NCBI RefSeq assembly: GCF_055900595.2
Contig: NZ_CM148325.1
Length of the DNA stretch: 64,000 bases
Strand: one strand, 5' to 3'
The notes beneath the pieces were generated by a model. The model did not search any database. It was not told the DNA's origin and worked only from the letters and a program-made list of their open reading frames with translations. This document shows positions 2 to 37,998 of the stretch, piece after piece. Within the stretch, counting starts at the first letter, position 1; every line of letters starts with the position of its first letter. Both the position numbers and the translations under genes were made by a program.

Positions 2-3000
2 GTTTACGTCAGTTGCCTGACGACGGCGAACAAACCTGCCAGCAGCATTACGCTGGATGTGGTTGATAACGCACAGTGGGCTGCCGGAAATAACGCGGCG
101 AAGCTGAAAAAAGGCGAAACGCTACAGGTTAAGGTAACGGTAAAAGATGCGCAGGGTAATCCGCTCACGGATATGCCATTTAAACTGAGTCGCGGAGACG
201 GTTATACCCGCACGGGCGAAAAACATATTGCCGGTAGTGGCGATGCGCTGGTGGCACCGGTGGTGATTAACAGTGGGCTGGCGGATGAAACGACGTTGAA
301 CGACACCGCGGGATTTTATACTGCCATGACCGGCAGCGACGGCAGCAAAATCCTCAATATTACCCGCCCGGATACTCACGGTACCAAAACGGCGCTGACG
401 GCGACGTTGTATTCCGATCCAACAAAAAAAGACAGCCTGGATACAATCTTTACTGTGGTCACCAGCCCGGATAGTAGCAAAGCGAAAATGTGGGGCCATA
501 TGCCGGAAACCTTAACGGCGGCAGATGGTACCGTTTTTAAACGCCCATTGCTGATAAAGGAACTGTCGAGTCAGACCGGGCGAACAGCAATATTCGAAGA
601 CAATGAAAACTGGGCGCTGTTTACTCAAACCCAGGCGAACTCAACCAGTAACGGCTGCGGCACTAGCTATGTTCCCACTCAGGCAGGGTTGTTGTCGTTG
701 TTTGATAATCACGCTGGCAATACCATCAAAACCGTCCAGGGCTGGCCGGTAGTAACGCGTTATTTATCCAGCACGCCCGACAACACTGGCATGGAACAGC
801 GTAACTACAAAGCGGTGGATCTCGGCAATGGCACCAGTGCCATGGTGTCAACGTCGACACTGGATCTACTGACCTGCCAAACCACGCCAGTCACCACGGT
901 GAGCCAGATTCTGCTGGAAGCGGCAGATCCTGCGGCTCTGATTTATGTTGACGATACACTGAGTGTGGTTAAAGCCAAAAAAGGCGAAGAGTCGGTAGTG
1001 CGCGTCACCACGAAAGATGCGCAAGGTAACCCGGTTGGCAATGCGGCGTTTATTCTGAAACGTGCCACCAGCATAAACCGGAGGTATACATCAGCGACAG
1101 CGAGTGTAGGTGCGCTGACTGTAACCGATGCCTGGGGAAATACGCGGAGTAATTTTCAGGCAACAACTGAAATGATCTATGGCGTGACGGGGGCTGACGG
1201 GTCGACAACCTTTACGCTGAAACAGGATAACAGTACCGGGTTAAGAACCGATCTCACGGCATCACTGGATGGCGTCAGCAGCGTTCAGGCGACCCTCCCG
1301 ATGGTCTTTACCGTGGTAACCAGTCCAGATTCTCCTAAAGCGAATTTTTGGGGACACATGCCTGAAACGGTAACGGCCGCTGATGGCATGACGTATAAGC
1401 GACCATTACTGTTTAAAGAACTTACCAATAACTATGCACGCTATAGCACTTTTGAGAATGGTGAAGATTGGGCAAGATTCAGTGTGGTTCAGTCAAATAA
1501 CACCGATATGGATGGATGCGGTGCAGAGTATATGCCGACACTGGATGGCCTGCAGTCCTTGTACAGTGCCAATAGTGGTAATGCGATGAGTACAGTGCAG
1601 GGATGGCCGGTAGCTAATAGTTATCTCACCAATACACCGAGTGATACGCAACCCAGTAACCGTTATTACAATGTGGTGCAACTGAATTCCGGCGCGGTTT
1701 CTCAAATCGTGACCACCGTGCTGGCATTACAAACTTGTCGCACAACGCCTGCGGTTATTGCCAGCCAGGTGTCTCTGGAGCCTGCGGACGCCACGCAATT
1801 CGTTAAGGTTGACGATACTCTGAGCGCCATTAAGGTGAAAAAAGGCGATGAGGTTGTTATTCGCGTCACGACCAAAGATGCGCAAGGAAACCCGGTGGGT
1901 AATACGCCGTTTACACTGAAGCGTAGCAGTTCTTTCAATCGCCAGAATGCATTAGTGACGATGCAGACGGTTTCGGTGACACCCGCAGCGGCCAGTACAG
2001 TTGATACCAATGCATCGGCCACCGTGTATGGCGTGACCGGGCCAGACGGAACCACCACGATGACACTCCGACAGGATGCGTCTACTGGACTCAAAACCGA
2101 CTTTTATGCTCTGTTGAACGATACCGGCGTGTCGTCGAACACCTTGCCAGTGATCTTCACCGTCGTCACCAGCCCGGATACACCGCTGGCGGCCAACTGG
2201 GGGCATATGGCGGAAACCTTTACCAGCAGCAAGGGCGTCACCTTCAAACGGCCTTTCCTCAAAGCTGAACTTTCTGGTGGTACGGCGGTAACGACCAATA
2301 ATGAAGTCTGGTCGCGCCTGACAGCAACGGAGAAAACGGATGCCAGCAAGGCGGGTTGTGATGAGAGTTATCAACCGCTGATGACTGACATGCAGGGGTT
2401 GTATGCGGATTACCCTAACAACCAGTTGGGCACGGTGCTCGGCTTGCCGACTTCCGCCGGGTATATGTGGGCCTACGACATGATGACGGTTTCTGGCAGC
2501 AGCTGGAGCAACCAGGCATATTCGCTCGTTAATGGTCAGACAGTTCAGGCATCGTCCAGTTATACGGCGGTAGTGATGTGCCTGGTGGAACCGCATACCG
2601 TTCCGGCGATGATAGAGATCACTTCAACAGCACAGGATGCGGCAAAAACGGTCAGCAATGGTGGTCGACCGAGCGCCGTAGCGAAGAAAGGTGAGACGAT
2701 TCCGCTGACGGTGACCGTACGTGATAGCACCGGGAATCCGGTACCCTACGCCGACTTTACCCTCACGCGTGGAACGACGCTGGATCGCTCGAAAGCAACC
2801 GTTAACTCGAGTGCGGACGATCTTACCGTGAAGTCATTGATACCCGCGAACAGCGACGCTGGGCTGACGGCAAATGGGGCAAAAGTGCTCAGAACAACGG
2901 GCAGTGATGGCACTGCCACCTTTGAAGTGAGCCAGAATGCCACGACAGGTCTGGCGACACCGATAACCGTCACGCTGGCGCGCGATACAACCAAAACCGC

Positions 3001-35052: not shown

Positions 35053-35344
35053 GGCGTGGCTCCTTCGGGTGGTGACGTAAGGGTTTAATCAGGCTGGCGA
35101 CGTTGCCGCGTGCGGCAGTCAGGCAAATCAGCAGCACGATGTTGATGGCGGTTTCGGCGATAAACACGTAGCGGTACAGGCTGAAACAAATCAGTACCGC
35201 CACTGATGCGGTGCAGCACATCAGCAGCCACGCCAGCCAGCTATACAGCGGGCGATAGGTAGTACCGTGAACGCGGCGATAGAGGAACAGACGGATGGTA
35301 ATCAGCAGGCAAATAATGGCGTTAAGGCTCAGGATTAGTTTCAT
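35030..35344 (-). CDS. Small membrane protein, holin/antiholin-like
   Basis: 104 aa with three hydrophobic segments; sits between holin and endolysin. Confidence 0.45.
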   Translation of the reverse strand: MKLILSLNAIICLLITIRLFLYRRVHGTTYRPLYSWLAWLLMCCTASVAVLICFSLYRYVFIAETAINIVLLICLTAARGNVASLIKPLRHHPKEPRHDSYTHS

Positions 35345-35730
35345 TTGCGTCCCCTTAAAAAGTCGAGCAGTTGACCGGGGTTATCCAGTTGTCGGATGGC
35401 CCATAGCAGCGCCTTGACGGTAAGCGCCGATGAGAGCAGCGCCCCGATACCGGGGGAGACTTTTTCCGTCAGATGTTGCGGCAGATATCCGGCGACCAGT
35501 GCAGTGAACAGGTCGGCGGTCAGCAGGCCGATCACAAACGCCACGCAGAAGAAAATGATGCGCAGGAACAGGCCGATCTCTTTTTGCGAAATCACCAGCA
35601 GCAGCGCGCCACACAATGCGCCGAGCACCACCGGAGCCTGTAGCGTCGGGAACAGCGTGGCAATGGAGAATGCGCTTACGGAAGCGGCGACGACGGTGCC
35701 GGTTACGGGTTCGTTCATAGTCAGTCCCAC
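35341..35730 (-). CDS. Holin (P2 gpY-like)
   Basis: 129-aa protein with multiple hydrophobic helices and a charged C-terminus, located after X. Confidence 0.55.
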   Translation of the reverse strand: MGLTMNEPVTGTVVAASVSAFSIATLFPTLQAPVVLGALCGALLLVISQKEIGLFLRIIFFCVAFVIGLLTADLFTALVAGYLPQHLTEKVSPGIGALLSSALTVKALLWAIRQLDNPGQLLDFLRGRK

Positions 35731-35924
35731 AGGTTGATTCGTTGACGTTCGGCGGCGGGAGCCTGTTCAGGTACGTTCACCGCCGTACCGTGCGGCAGGC
35801 GCAGCGGCAGTTCGCATAGGCGCGGGTTGTCGCGGTAAAGCCGTTCGACAATCCCGGCAGTGCGCCCGAAGGTGCGCCAGCAGAGCTGGTCGAGCGTTTC
35901 GTTTTGCAGGCTATAGACAATCAT
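35721..35924 (-). CDS. X: Tail protein X (LysM-like)
   Basis: 67-aa ORF, same size and position as P2 gpX (MIVYSLQNETLDQLCWRTFGRTAG). Confidence 0.7.
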   Translation of the reverse strand: MIVYSLQNETLDQLCWRTFGRTAGIVERLYRDNPRLCELPLRLPHGTAVNVPEQAPAAERQRINLWD

Positions 35925-36038
35925 GGTGTTTCCCGCGCGGCGTCAGGTGATGCGGGGATGGTGGCACAGGGGCGGGAAGTGAAGGGAAGGCTTCCGCTTG
36001 TAACTGAGGACAGTACAAGCGGAAGCGATTGGCGAGGG

Positions 36039-36359
36039 CTATGCCTCGTCGCTGTCGGTATTGATGATTTTCAGTTCAGCGGACTTCTGGAGCTGGATCA
36101 GCGCCGGGATCAGAAGCGCGGTAGCCGACAGGCCGTGCCCTAACTGGCACAGGCTTTCAGCGGAGAATTCCAGCACGTTGCTGTCGGCAAAGGAGACGAA
36201 GGTTTTACCCAGAAAATGCAGGCCGTGACATAGCCCGGCATAGCACTCTTCGCTGCTGTTGGCCAGTTGCAGAGTATCGTCGGCGTTCAGGTGTGAAATA
36301 TCCAGCTTGCGGATCGCGTCCGCCAGTTCAGAGGACAGAATATTGGTTTCAGGCACCAT
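36039..36359 (-). CDS. Hypothetical acidic protein (accessory)
   Basis: 106-aa ORF between L and X, where P2 has no gene. Confidence 0.4.
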   Translation of the reverse strand: MVPETNILSSELADAIRKLDISHLNADDTLQLANSSEECYAGLCHGLHFLGKTFVSFADSNVLEFSAESLCQLGHGLSATALLIPALIQLQKSAELKIINTDSDEA

Positions 36360-36520
36360 GGCGCACCTCCAGCGGTTTGCAGGAGACGAACACCAGCGGG
36401 AAACCCGCCAGCAGGCCGCGAGCCTCTGTCTCTGTTGTCGCCAGTACGGATACCAGACGCAGTGGCTGGATCTCGCGCAGCAGGCGGTTGGAACGGGCGT
36501 TCAGGAAGGTGTAGAGCTTA
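36353..36520 (-). CDS. Small hypothetical protein (about 55 aa), not in ORF track
   Basis: Hand translation of the minus strand gives MPKLYTFLNARSNRLLREIQPLRLVSVLATTETEARGLLAGFPLVFVSCKPLEVRHGA between two flanking small genes. Confidence 0.3.
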
Positions 36521-36757
36521 GGCATGGTTCACCTCCTCTACCGGGGTGCTACGTGGGGGATTGAACGACTGAGCGATAACGCTCAGTGCCTGCTTACCTT
36601 CGGGATGCGCAAGACGGTAGTAAGTTAACAGGACTTGCTCCTGTGGGCTGAGATCGTCCCACGTGAGAGTTGTGTTACTATTAGCGGTAGCCATAGCATT
36701 ACCTCGATTAATGTTGTGGTTAGATGCCTTGGCAGTGTTCGCGCACTGTCGGGGCAT
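36518..36757 (-). CDS. Small hypothetical protein (accessory)
   Basis: 79-aa ORF; likely start at MATANSNTTLTWDDLSPQEQ. Confidence 0.35.
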   Translation of the reverse strand: MPRQCANTAKASNHNINRGNAMATANSNTTLTWDDLSPQEQVLLTYYRLAHPEGKQALSVIAQSFNPPRSTPVEEVNHA

Positions 36758-36836
36758 TGTTATTTATGTCATGTGATAGTAATGTGTCATCACACAGTAC
36801 TACATTAACCTGAGTGTGATTTAGGTGTCAATACAC

Positions 36837-37004
36837 ATGAATGAAAGAAGAGGAAATCCTCCGTTTCAGTTTCGACTCGATCCTGAACTGAGAAACGCGA
36901 TGGAAGAAGCTAAAAAGCAAGATGGTGATGAATCACTGGCTGCGTGGATTAAGCGAATTATCAGAAAAGAGCTTCAGTCACGGGGTATAGAACCAAAAGA
37001 TTAG
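36837..37004 (+). CDS. Ribbon-helix-helix (CopG/Arc-like) small DNA-binding protein, not in ORF track
   Basis: Hand translation MNERRGNPPFQFRLDPELRNAMEEAKKQDGDESLAAWIKRIIRKELQSRGIEPKD; beta-strand FRLDPEL followed by two helices is typical of RHH. Confidence 0.4.
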   Translation: MNERRGNPPFQFRLDPELRNAMEEAKKQDGDESLAAWIKRIIRKELQSRGIEPKD

Positions 37005-37050
37005 CAGATAGGTATATACTTTGAATAAAGAGTATTAGAGGTAAAAAATA

Positions 37051-37239
37051 ATGGCGAAGAATAGCAGTCCTGCCAGCCGATACGGTATCAAGGTCGTAAA
37101 AAGAGACAGTATGAGCGGGCAGTTTGTACCCGTCGAAATGAAGCTGGACGGCCCGGAAGGTGAGCGTGTGATTAAAAAGTCGGCAGAGCGTATTTATGCC
37201 AGACACAACAAAGTCATTAAGGCGCTGGCTAACCGATGA
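37051..37239 (+). CDS. Putative antitoxin partner of the Doc-family toxin
   Basis: 62-aa ORF whose stop overlaps the Doc start by 4 nt. Confidence 0.4.
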   Translation: MAKNSSPASRYGIKVVKRDSMSGQFVPVEMKLDGPEGERVIKKSAERIYARHNKVIKALANR

Positions 37240-37613
37240 TTGATGCACATTTGGTGATTGGAATTCACGACTTTATTCTTGCTCATGAGCCGGGATTGGT
37301 TGGTTATCAGGATGCTGGCCGGGTCGAGGCAACACTGGCACGGGTGGATAACCGTATTCTGTATGAGCAGATGAATGATATTTTCCAGATCGCCGCATCT
37401 TATGCGGTTGCCATCGCCAGAGGGCACGTTTTTGCTGATGCCAACAAGCGAACGGCACTGGTGACGGCGTTGACATACCTTGATATGCAGGGTGTGAACC
37501 TCAAGCGAACACAAAAGCTGGAAGATATTATGGTGGATGTGGCTGAGGGAACGCTAAATCTGGATGATTTAGCCGATATTTTCTATACCCTTAGTGATGT
37601 AAATGCTTCCTGA
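37236..37613 (+). CDS. doc: Doc/Fic-family toxin
   Basis: Contains the Fic/Doc signature HVFADANKRTALV (HxFx(D/N)(A/G)NKR). Confidence 0.75.
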   Translation: MIDAHLVIGIHDFILAHEPGLVGYQDAGRVEATLARVDNRILYEQMNDIFQIAASYAVAIARGHVFADANKRTALVTALTYLDMQGVNLKRTQKLEDIMVDVAEGTLNLDDLADIFYTLSDVNAS

Positions 37614-37645
37614 CGTTACAGCCCGACAGATCGGGCTGTTTTTAA

Positions 37646-37882
37646 TTATGCCGCCTCAATACCCGCGTTGGTTAACATATAGTGGCCCCAGTGGTTTTTT
37701 TTCAGGTAACCGGCCAGTTCCATCTGCGTCACAATAAATTCAGCGTTAACCATTTCTATACCTGCGTAGTCGGCCAGATCGCGCAGCGGCCATGTGCTGC
37801 GAACGCCGACGCTAACTATGGTGTCTCTGATGCGGCGAGCGGTATCGGTCATTGGGCGGGTTCTGGCTGCCTGAATAGTCAT
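37646..37882 (-). CDS. Small putative winged-helix DNA-binding protein (PapI/FaeA-like?)
   Basis: 78 aa; C-terminal DLADYAGIEMVNAEFIVTQMELAGYLKK...GHYMLT loosely resembles PapI/FaeA-type winged-helix regulators; weak call. Confidence 0.3.
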   Translation of the reverse strand: MTIQAARTRPMTDTARRIRDTIVSVGVRSTWPLRDLADYAGIEMVNAEFIVTQMELAGYLKKNHWGHYMLTNAGIEAA

Positions 37883-37998
37883 GGTATTTTCCCCTGTAGA
37901 TTCTTTCTGTTAGGTCAGACACTAACTCTGGTGGGGAAGGGGCATCCAGCGTTCAGATGAGGCGATACGGTGATGCGCATCGCATATCCGTACTCTTT

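Follow-up and report, generated by a model that had tools for sequence, protein, structure and literature searches.

Paired palindromes between predicted head-on promoters as probable operators of an Arc-like ribbon-helix-helix protein in a P2-like prophage and in satellite-like loci

We analysed the control region of a gene for a 59-amino-acid (aa) Arc-like ribbon-helix-helix (RHH) protein on a stretch of 64,000 nucleotides from NCBI RefSeq assembly GCF_055900595.2, contig NZ_CM148325.1 (the whole stretch is called the window below), which carries a P2-like prophage. The results suggest that two palindromes, O1 and O2, are probably the operators of this RHH protein, and that they lie between and over two predicted head-on promoters, the rightward P_R and the leftward P_L, so placed that the protein would repress both. 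This reading was drawn from sequence comparison, in which the palindromes were conserved within a class of the protein, changed together with its N-terminal half, and overlapped promoter hexamers that hold their position across the family.

Results

Two palindromes are conserved at the start of the RHH gene

We detected 147 homologues of the RHH protein, fetched 80 genomic loci and carried out the comparisons over 84 loci (individual loci are cited as L001 and so on). The protein of the window belongs to the group of homologues termed class A, within which conservation was measured on 23 non-redundant sequences from several orders, including Enterobacterales, Orbales and Pasteurellales. The sequences concerned are as follows.

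36825..37004, + strand: gene for the 59-aa Arc-like RHH protein, class A (RRGNPPFQFRLDPEL)
36782..36797, no strand: O1, core palindrome ATGTGT-CATC-ACACAG, with the strict core GTGT-N4-ACAC at 36784-36795
36825..36836, no strand: O2, putative second operator copy GTGTCAATACAC, over RHH codons 1-4 and the -35 hexamer of P_L
36772..36777, no strand: TGTGAT left arm, in the P_R spacer, 11 bp upstream of the O1 left arm
36814..36820, no strand: GTGTGAT, 11 bp upstream of O2, overlapping the Shine-Dalgarno region

The results showed a conserved pair of putative operators, O1 in the form ATGTGT-N4-ACACAK and O2 in the form GTGTCAAYACAC. Identity reached 0.95-0.96 in the O1 arms (ATGTGT 36782-87 and ACACAK 36792-97) and 0.96 in O2 (36825-36), compared with 0.68-0.71 in the neighbouring spacers. 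The class A consensus of O1 was ATGTGT-N4-ACACAT, and four class A loci (L004, L013, L023 and L026) carried the perfect 16-mer ATGTGTAATTACACAT at O1. At position -41/-40 from the RHH start, 19 of the 25 class A regions had GTGT-N4-ACAC and 23 had the looser form RTGT-N4-ACAY, compared with none of 48 in the other classes; at position 0, the place of O2, GTGT-N4-ACAC was present in 24 of 25 class A loci. Codons 1-4, which O2 covers, showed zero synonymous variation in class A, against 1-2.4 bits in later conserved Arg, Leu, Pro and Gly codons. The distance between the centres of O1 and O2 was 41 bp in class A and 31 bp in classes C1 and C2, which in each case is an integral number of helical turns.

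A preliminary description of this DNA had singled out tgtgatagtaatgtgtcatcacaca, with inverted TGTGAT and ATCACA arms, as consistent with autoregulation by the RHH protein. We located the string at 36772-36796, with perfect 6-nt arms (TGTGAT 36772-77, ATCACA 36789-94) separated by a gap of 11 nt. This repeat is no evidence by itself, as an equal or better inverted repeat occurred in 36-47% of dinucleotide shuffles: a perfect one (arms of at least 6, loop of at most 15) in 36% of shuffles of the 130-nt intergenic region, and one of the same quality in 47% when the 66 nt on the right-hand side of the terminator hairpin described below were shuffled. Around the site, 21 inverted pairs were counted in 351 nt. 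The arms named were not the relevant ones: TGTGAT was confined to a subgroup of class A loci and stood at background conservation (0.69, compared with 0.68-0.71 in neighbouring and promoter spacers), and the higher identity of ATCACA in class A (0.91) is due to its overlap with the inner palindrome. We consider TGTGAT at 36772-77 at most an auxiliary half-site that may act upstream of O1, and GTGTGAT at 36814-20 (identity 0.88 within class A) a possible auxiliary half-site of O2; the two belong to a family of direct repeats (36773-96 and 36814-37, 71% identity) in which the TGTG..11 bp..TGTG layout is repeated at O2. The idea that an operator of the adjacent RHH protein overlaps its own promoter is strongly backed by the comparative evidence, while the choice of arms was mistaken and the second operator copy was missed; the preliminary description pointed at the right 25 bp for a partly wrong reason.

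The region itself also had to be redrawn. It had been given as a simple divergent interval of 80 bp (36757-36837), but both gene starts were re-placed. The RHH gene starts at GTG 36825 and not at ATG 36837, its homologues beginning MST or MSI with a Shine-Dalgarno-like sequence at a conserved position, and the leftward gene starts at ATG 36694, following the PGAP annotation of the E. coli relatives L001 and L002. The intergenic region therefore spans 36695-36824 (130 bp), and instead of a plain divergent arrangement it holds two predicted head-on promoters and the end of a predicted antisense RNA gene. As a separate observation, in L034 (Xenorhabdus griffiniae, ~2870-3000) a (GACACA)n tandem array expands the operator region and takes the place of the usual spacing from the terminator hairpin to the RHH start.

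The palindrome changes together with the N-terminal half of the RHH protein

The N-terminal beta-strand region of the RHH homologues sorted into six classes, and the C-terminal helix AAWIKRIIRKELQSRG was common to all of them. The classes and their palindromes, with positions counted from the RHH start, are listed below.

Class A: N-terminal motif RRGNPPFQFRL (example: window); palindrome GTGT-N4-ACAC in 24/25 loci and in 0/48 of the other classes, at -41/-40 and 0
Class B: N-terminal motif KGNKQIA[LF]RV (example: L001)
Class C1: N-terminal motif KRSPQYQMRL; palindrome TGGT-N4-ACCA upstream and GGTAATTACC near the start, in 15/17 loci, at -42/-41 and -10
Class C2: N-terminal motif KTDQYQ[IL]RL (example: L003); palindrome TGTAATTACA in 10/10 loci, at -41 and -10
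Class C3: N-terminal motif KRSPQFPMRL; palindrome GTATATAC in 3/3 loci
Class D: N-terminal motif ER[YL]VVQLRL (example: L002)

TGGT-N4-ACCA was restricted to class C1, and in the classes other than A the start-proximal palindrome had its own sequence, at -10 to -1. Operators of RHH repressors are short repeats, inverted or direct, over the regulated promoter, with a specificity set by residues of the beta-strand; the class-specific palindromes, their swap jointly with the N-terminal half of the protein and their overlap with the predicted promoters agree with this description. At three loci, two tandem RHH genes of different classes (B then A, or B then D) were observed, each with its own upstream region (L014 2769-3174, L018 2760-3165 and L040 3001-3468).

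The joint swap was seen when the window was compared with E. coli GMF054 (L001). The two were ~99% identical from the middle of the RHH gene through the 62-aa putative antitoxin, the Doc toxin and the terminator that follow it, but only ~45% identical from ~36760 to ~36925, which comprises the operators and the N-terminal half of the RHH gene. L001 carried a different, perfect palindrome, TGTATGAC-TGTT-GTCATACA, where the window has its own, while the antitoxin and Doc proteins of the two loci were 100% identical. The antitoxin and Doc were present in 3 of the 84 loci, always together, and absent from the other 81; among the class A loci (n = 25) either was found in the window only. These results indicate that the palindrome belongs with the N-terminal half of the RHH protein and not with the toxin-antitoxin pair, so that the link to an RHH/Doc operon made in the preliminary description was incidental: 24 other class A loci lack both Doc and antitoxin, and L001 has the same pair behind a different RHH protein and palindrome. 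The mosaic boundary between the window and L001 is sharp and lies inside the RHH gene. Specificity modules or hotspot cargo may be exchanged by recombination in the conserved C-terminal half of this gene.

The palindromes overlap two predicted head-on promoters

We scanned -150 to +30 of every locus with our own position weight matrix (PWM) and scored the hits also against segments of the window. Two candidate sigma-70 promoters facing each other were predicted.

36757..36785, + strand: P_R, predicted RHH promoter; -35 TTGTTA 36757-62, 17-nt spacer, -10 TAATGT 36780-85, start ~36792
36802..36831, - strand: P_L, predicted promoter to the left, with TTGACA (complement of 36826-31) as -35 and TAATGT (complement of 36802-07) as -10, 18 nt apart, and a start at ~36795

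The P_R pattern (TTGnnn at -68, 17 nt, TAnnnT at -45) scored best on the + strand in most loci of every class, with T1, A2 and T6 of the -10 hexamer invariant. On the opposite strand, a perfect TTGACA facing RHH codons 1-3, followed 16-18 nt on by TAnnnT, was found in ~75 of the 84 loci and in all classes; RHH codon 2 was TCA (Ser) in all 79 non-redundant genes of all classes, and P_L scored 12.0, within the top 2.3% of window segments. Both promoters hold their position in ~75 of the 84 loci. O1 lies between the -10 hexamers of P_R and P_L, overlapping the -10/+1 region of P_R and the +1 of P_L, whose predicted start sites are ~3 bp apart. O2 lies on the -35 hexamer of P_L in class A and on the adjacent P_L spacer in the C classes.

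The 59-aa protein is likely to have the RHH fold

The 59-aa protein matched PHROG 228 ('Arc-like repressor', E = 3e-6). The AlphaFold2 model of the monomer has an extended N-terminus followed by two helices (20-33 and 38-52), with a predicted local distance difference test score above 90 over the helices. In a Foldseek search of the PDB, nearly all of the 50 matches listed, including the entire top, were RHH proteins, with a root-mean-square deviation of 0.7-1.0 Å and template-modelling scores of 0.5-0.6; Arc, NikR, CopG, AmrZ, PutA, ParD and AtaR were among them. Model and matches agree with the beta-alpha-alpha RHH fold of ~45 residues, and the protein is likely to adopt it, as judged from the model. 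The NCBIfam family YlcI/YnfO scored 22 bits on the protein, below its cut-off of 30.

Among phages, tblastn with the RHH protein returned only Pasteurella phage Pmp8, blastn with 36500-37700 gave no match in the phage collection, and a scan of viral contigs for exact 28-mers gave one locus, L003.

Proposed mechanism and alternative explanations

In the arrangement proposed, P_R would transcribe rightward into the RHH gene and, in the window, also into antitoxin-Doc, and P_L would transcribe leftward into a unit of small genes that includes an Icd-like gene. RHH dimers would bind at O1 and O2, each site probably taking up a dimer of dimers, and the two in-phase sites might cooperate. The RHH oligomers would then occlude both promoters, resulting in negative autoregulation of P_R and repression of P_L.

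Several points weigh against this proposal. DNA binding by the protein, the direction of its regulatory effect, the positions of the transcription starts and the stoichiometry are all deduced from conservation of sequence, from the covariation of class and palindrome, and from positional conservation of the hexamers. For the fold, each single Foldseek E-value was about 1, hhalign aligned NPPFQFRLDPEL with Arc MPQFNLRWPREV with the beta-strand in register but at a low probability of 26%, no Pfam family matched the 59-aa protein, and a sequence-profile search of the PDB with the family alignment gave nothing meaningful. For the promoters, P_R was a modest match with a score of 9.1, within the top 17% of window segments, so that the case for it rests on positional conservation, and a stricter built-in scan (at least 4 of 6 matches per hexamer) found no promoter in 36300-37900 or 35300-36800. 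For the palindromes, O1 of the window is imperfect, its last base being G and not T, and its centre CATC is not palindromic; the conservation of O2 could partly reflect translation-initiation or coding constraints. The operators of classes B and D were less clear-cut, with no clean definition from a single palindrome search and a site that is shifted or composite, and the classes could partly reflect shared descent, although their flanks vary. We nevertheless regard operator function for O1 and O2 as probable.

The best-surviving alternative, which we consider unlikely, is that another class-specific factor (encoded by a helper phage, a satellite or a neighbouring gene) recognises the palindromes, and that the RHH protein has a different role. 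Helper proteins commonly act on the regulatory regions of satellites, as established for Stl of the Staphylococcus aureus pathogenicity islands (SaPIs) and for AlpA (PMC6092414), and binding by the RHH protein itself is concluded indirectly. However, no coding sequence other than that of the RHH N-terminal half changes with the palindromes, while the neighbours to the left and right vary independently of class.

A further alternative is that the palindromes act as RNA and not as protein sites, through hairpins in the 5' leader or pairing between the O1 and O2 segments that would control RHH translation. ATCACAC (36789-95) and GTGTGAT (36814-20) are perfectly complementary, O2 lies over the start codon, and the palindromes can fold as hairpins. 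But with the start predicted at ~36792 the left arm of O1 would be untranscribed, the predicted leader (36792-36850) folded no better than its shuffles (z = 0.43), and the pairing of the two heptamers was lost in L005 and L006. An RNA role would also leave unexplained the covariation with the beta-strand class and the swap boundary inside the RHH gene, and we judge it quite improbable.

Slightly less probable still is a chance repeat in a TG/CA-rich region, or a host-factor site of the CRP type (TGTGA-N6-TCACA) or LexA type. The shuffling results given above favour chance, and TGTGA and TCACA are CRP half-sites; yet the inner palindrome is conserved class by class and the left outer arm is not. 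Chance is therefore essentially accepted for the outer TGTGAT/ATCACA repeat and refuted for the inner palindrome. A CRP site was rejected, its halves (TGTGA 36772-76 and TCACA 36790-94) being spaced by 13 nt and not 6 and the left half not being conserved, as was a LexA site, since the CAG end that mimics a LexA box is unique to the window.

Hardly tenable, finally, is the view that the 62-aa antitoxin, with Doc as co-repressor, uses the palindrome as its operator, as Phd/Doc do on the P1 phd-doc promoter: the site does stand upstream of an operon ending in antitoxin-Doc, and type II antitoxins usually autoregulate, but the comparative data largely refute it, as the identical pair follows different palindromes in the window and L001, the palindrome does not covary with the pair at large (24 of 25 class A regions have the palindrome, the window alone the pair), and the antitoxin has no recognisable DNA-binding family.

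A predicted SymR-like antisense RNA ends at P_R

Immediately to the left of P_R, the + strand is predicted to encode a structured antisense RNA.

36689..36768, + strand: predicted cis-antisense small RNA (SymR-like); -10 TACTAT 36676-81, U tract merging into the P_R -35
36689-36721, + strand: first stem-loop of the antisense RNA, with the anti-Shine-Dalgarno CCUC in its loop
36723-36758, + strand: second stem-loop, the terminator hairpin, followed by the U tract

The RNA covers the Shine-Dalgarno sequence and start codon (36694) of the first leftward gene. Compensatory changes were found in 15 of its 19 pairs across 70 loci, and 95.4% of cells were paired, compared with 84% in shuffles (reached in 0 of 500) and ~42% when the structure was slid. 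On the other strand, many of its G.U pairs would turn into A.C mismatches, and the + strand fold of the hairpin was the more stable one in 65 of 71 loci. The 82-nt RNA folded with a free energy of -38.5 kcal/mol (z -6.5), and a TAnnnT hexamer stood 8 nt before a GCCAT anchor in 64 of 70 loci. Covariation, the G.U strand bias, the U tract and the conserved -10 hexamer thus agree with a structured cis-antisense RNA over the translation start of the opposite gene. The Rfam SymR family (RF01809) matched with 29.1 bits (E = 0.008), below its gathering score of 61, and at the same place in L004 with 27.1 bits, likewise below 61.

The cassette borders cargo in the gpL-gpX interval of the prophage

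The P2-like prophage of the window has gpO, gpN, gpM and gpL to the right (- strand) and gpX, holins, endolysin and spanins to the left. The interval between gpL and gpX holds orf78 (- strand), the + strand unit of RHH gene, antitoxin, Doc and terminator, and three small - strand genes including the Icd-like one. The genes next to the operators are as follows.

37051..37239, + strand: 62-aa putative antitoxin, whose stop codon overlaps the Doc start (ATGA)
37236..37613, + strand: Doc toxin of the Fic/Doc family (Pfam PF02661, 2.6e-10; TIGR01550 DOC_P1, 3.7e-25; PHROG 577, 1.6e-35)
37618..37639, + strand: intrinsic terminator ending the RHH-antitoxin-Doc unit; 9-bp stem with 6 GC pairs, then a T run
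36518..36694, - strand: first leftward gene, 58 aa (MATANSN...), its start covered by the antisense RNA
36349-36525, - strand: Icd-like gene (NF033153, 24.8 bits against a cut-off of 25)
36039-36359, - strand: orf106, after the Icd-like gene

When all seven neighbouring proteins were searched against Pfam, Doc alone was recognised. The 62-aa protein matched no Pfam or NCBIfam family, and its single family match was PHROG 11529, of unknown function; it may represent a Doc antitoxin family that is so far uncharacterised. In the window, the RHH gene is not followed by a terminator and the antitoxin is not preceded by a separate usable promoter; P_R therefore probably transcribes antitoxin-Doc as well. 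An internal candidate (TTGAAT-17-AAAAAT at 37021-49) was rejected, as its -10 abuts the start codon. The Doc toxin-antitoxin pair here appears to be hotspot cargo under a borrowed promoter, and not a classical self-regulated toxin-antitoxin operon.

On the leftward side, comparison with the 68-aa Icd-like gene of the relatives (L001:2816-3022 and L002:2316-2522) showed an insertion of ~170 bp after codon 7 in the window (~36526-36672), which resulted in a separate 58-aa open reading frame (MATANSNTTLTWDDLSPQEQ...) and a restarted Icd-like frame (MPKLYTFLNARSN...). The 58-aa protein had no homologue in the other 83 loci.

The region 'downstream of GpL' has been described as a defence hotspot of P2-like phages (2026 preprint). 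In the same gpL-gpX slot, E. coli L725 (L002, 2883-4173) has, behind an RHH gene of class D, a 177-aa unknown protein and a helix-turn-helix plus RelE/ParE pair instead of Doc, a difference that indicates turnover of cargo at this hotspot.

The cassette occurs mainly in satellite-like loci

The P2-like gpL-gpX slot was occupied only in the window, L001-L003 and L078; most of the other loci, among them L084-L087 and most of L004-L083, were satellite-like. In satellites of the P4-like type or resembling phage-inducible chromosomal islands (PICIs), the cassette stood between int-alpA-cargo (for example, a TIR protein) and icd-like-DUF4222-primase. The P4-alpha/D5-type primase was always to the left on the - strand (25/25 loci), AlpA (29/29) and the integrase (18/18) were always to the right on the - strand, and the RHH gene was the sole + strand gene of the satellite loci. 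The class A version from E. coli was found in at least 182 of 5426 complete genomes, beside a gene that PGAP names Icd-like; the full PGAP name of the satellite homologues is 'host cell division inhibitor Icd-like protein'. The neighbouring genes on both the leftward and the rightward side varied independently of the RHH class, and a cassette of 330 bp (antisense RNA, two head-on promoters, two operators and RHH gene) was kept across several orders, including Enterobacterales, Orbales and Pasteurellales. By its sequence, it appears to be a cassette with at least six exchangeable specificity modules.

Two satellites gave side observations. L007 has an Rfam int-alpA RNA (RF02996; 5713-5780, - strand) at 63.6 bits, above threshold, in its int-alpA region. 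In E. coli, the satellite of L084 (1-12180) is apparently inserted in a lambdoid capsid-gene region, with copies of HDPD and Phage_cap_E flanking it and the portal and S49 protease genes beyond the integrase; the arrangement agrees with the type that Mageeney et al. 2023 call 'helper-embedded PICI'.

An RHH operator before an RHH gene is, taken alone, a textbook finding, and the value of the present one lies in its context: the cassette sits at the junction of int-alpA-cargo and the replication operon in satellites and, in P2-like prophages, on the border of the defence hotspot that lies downstream of gpL. Gram-negative PICIs are transcribed unidirectionally, and their global repressor has been called 'unclear' (Fillol-Salom et al. 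2018; PMC6092414); the account by Mageeney et al. 2023 covers zones and immunity RNAs and no RHH protein. Our literature searches found no paper linking PICIs with RHH proteins, and nothing relevant on face-to-face promoters with RHH proteins or on YlcI/YnfO. If the RHH protein represses P_L, it would be a candidate repressor for the Gram-negative PICI-like satellites, in which one is missing, and the classes would form a natural set of orthogonal repressor-operator pairs. It is possible, though we advance it only tentatively, that the central on/off switch in a large family of Gram-negative satellites is made up of the RHH protein, the twin class-specific operators, the head-on promoters and the SymR-like RNA, with the N-terminal classes as immunity groups. 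The copy at the hotspot would then be a helper phage carrying a satellite-type switch, which could control cargo such as Doc or allow cross-talk with satellites of the same class.

Comparison with known systems

One close known system is the immI region of phage P22, where the Arc repressor and its operator stand in the Pant/Pmnt region together with Mnt and the sar antisense RNA. Shared with it, as predicted for the present element, are a small RHH protein encoded at the head of its own transcription unit, a short operator palindrome over the promoter core, an influence of one operator on two opposite, overlapping promoters, and an antisense RNA within the same control region. The 59-aa protein resembles Arc in its PHROG annotation and in the register of the beta-strand, but has no significant sequence relationship with it by hhalign. 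The present element also differs from immI in having two operator copies 31 or 41 bp apart, the second over the start codon of the repressor's own gene, promoters that meet head-on with start sites a few base pairs apart, an antisense RNA directed at the first gene of the opposite unit, and no Mnt-like second repressor.

The switches of phages P2 and 186 likewise have face-to-face promoters, Pe and Pc with C and Cox in P2, and pR and pL with CI and Apl in 186. Convergent promoters with overlapping transcripts and repressor sites over them recur here, in a geometry that is predicted, and the element of the window is itself P2-like. Here, however, the repressor would be an RHH protein and not of the C/CI type, the transcripts would overlap by a few nucleotides, and the position is the late region or defence hotspot, not the immunity region.

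Three-component toxin-antitoxin systems such as omega-epsilon-zeta and PaaR2-PaaA2-ParE2 share the order regulator-antitoxin-toxin, which in the window is apparently co-transcribed. The omega regulator, too, is an RHH protein, and there is a resemblance between its heptad WATCACW and the ATCACA arm, which was rejected, as it lies in the non-conserved register. In contrast to these systems, the RHH family here is not dedicated to toxin-antitoxin pairs (81/84 loci have none), and its palindromes are spaced and not contiguous 7-bp heptads, so that the element does not count as one of them.

The neighbouring RNA resembles SymR of the type I SymR/SymE system in its length of ~80 nt, its two stem-loops, its antisense position over a Shine-Dalgarno sequence and start codon, and its promoter inside the opposite gene. 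It differs in scoring below the Rfam threshold (29 against 61), in having an Icd-like or other small protein, not SymE, as its target, and in showing no evident LexA control. The Stl (Rpr) repressors of SaPIs and PICIs offer a parallel in position, their gene standing opposite to the satellite replication operon at the junction of the int side and the replication side; Stl proteins are, however, larger helix-turn-helix proteins of Gram-positive elements. Taken together, these comparisons place the element as one of a known kind, in an unusual and apparently undescribed arrangement.

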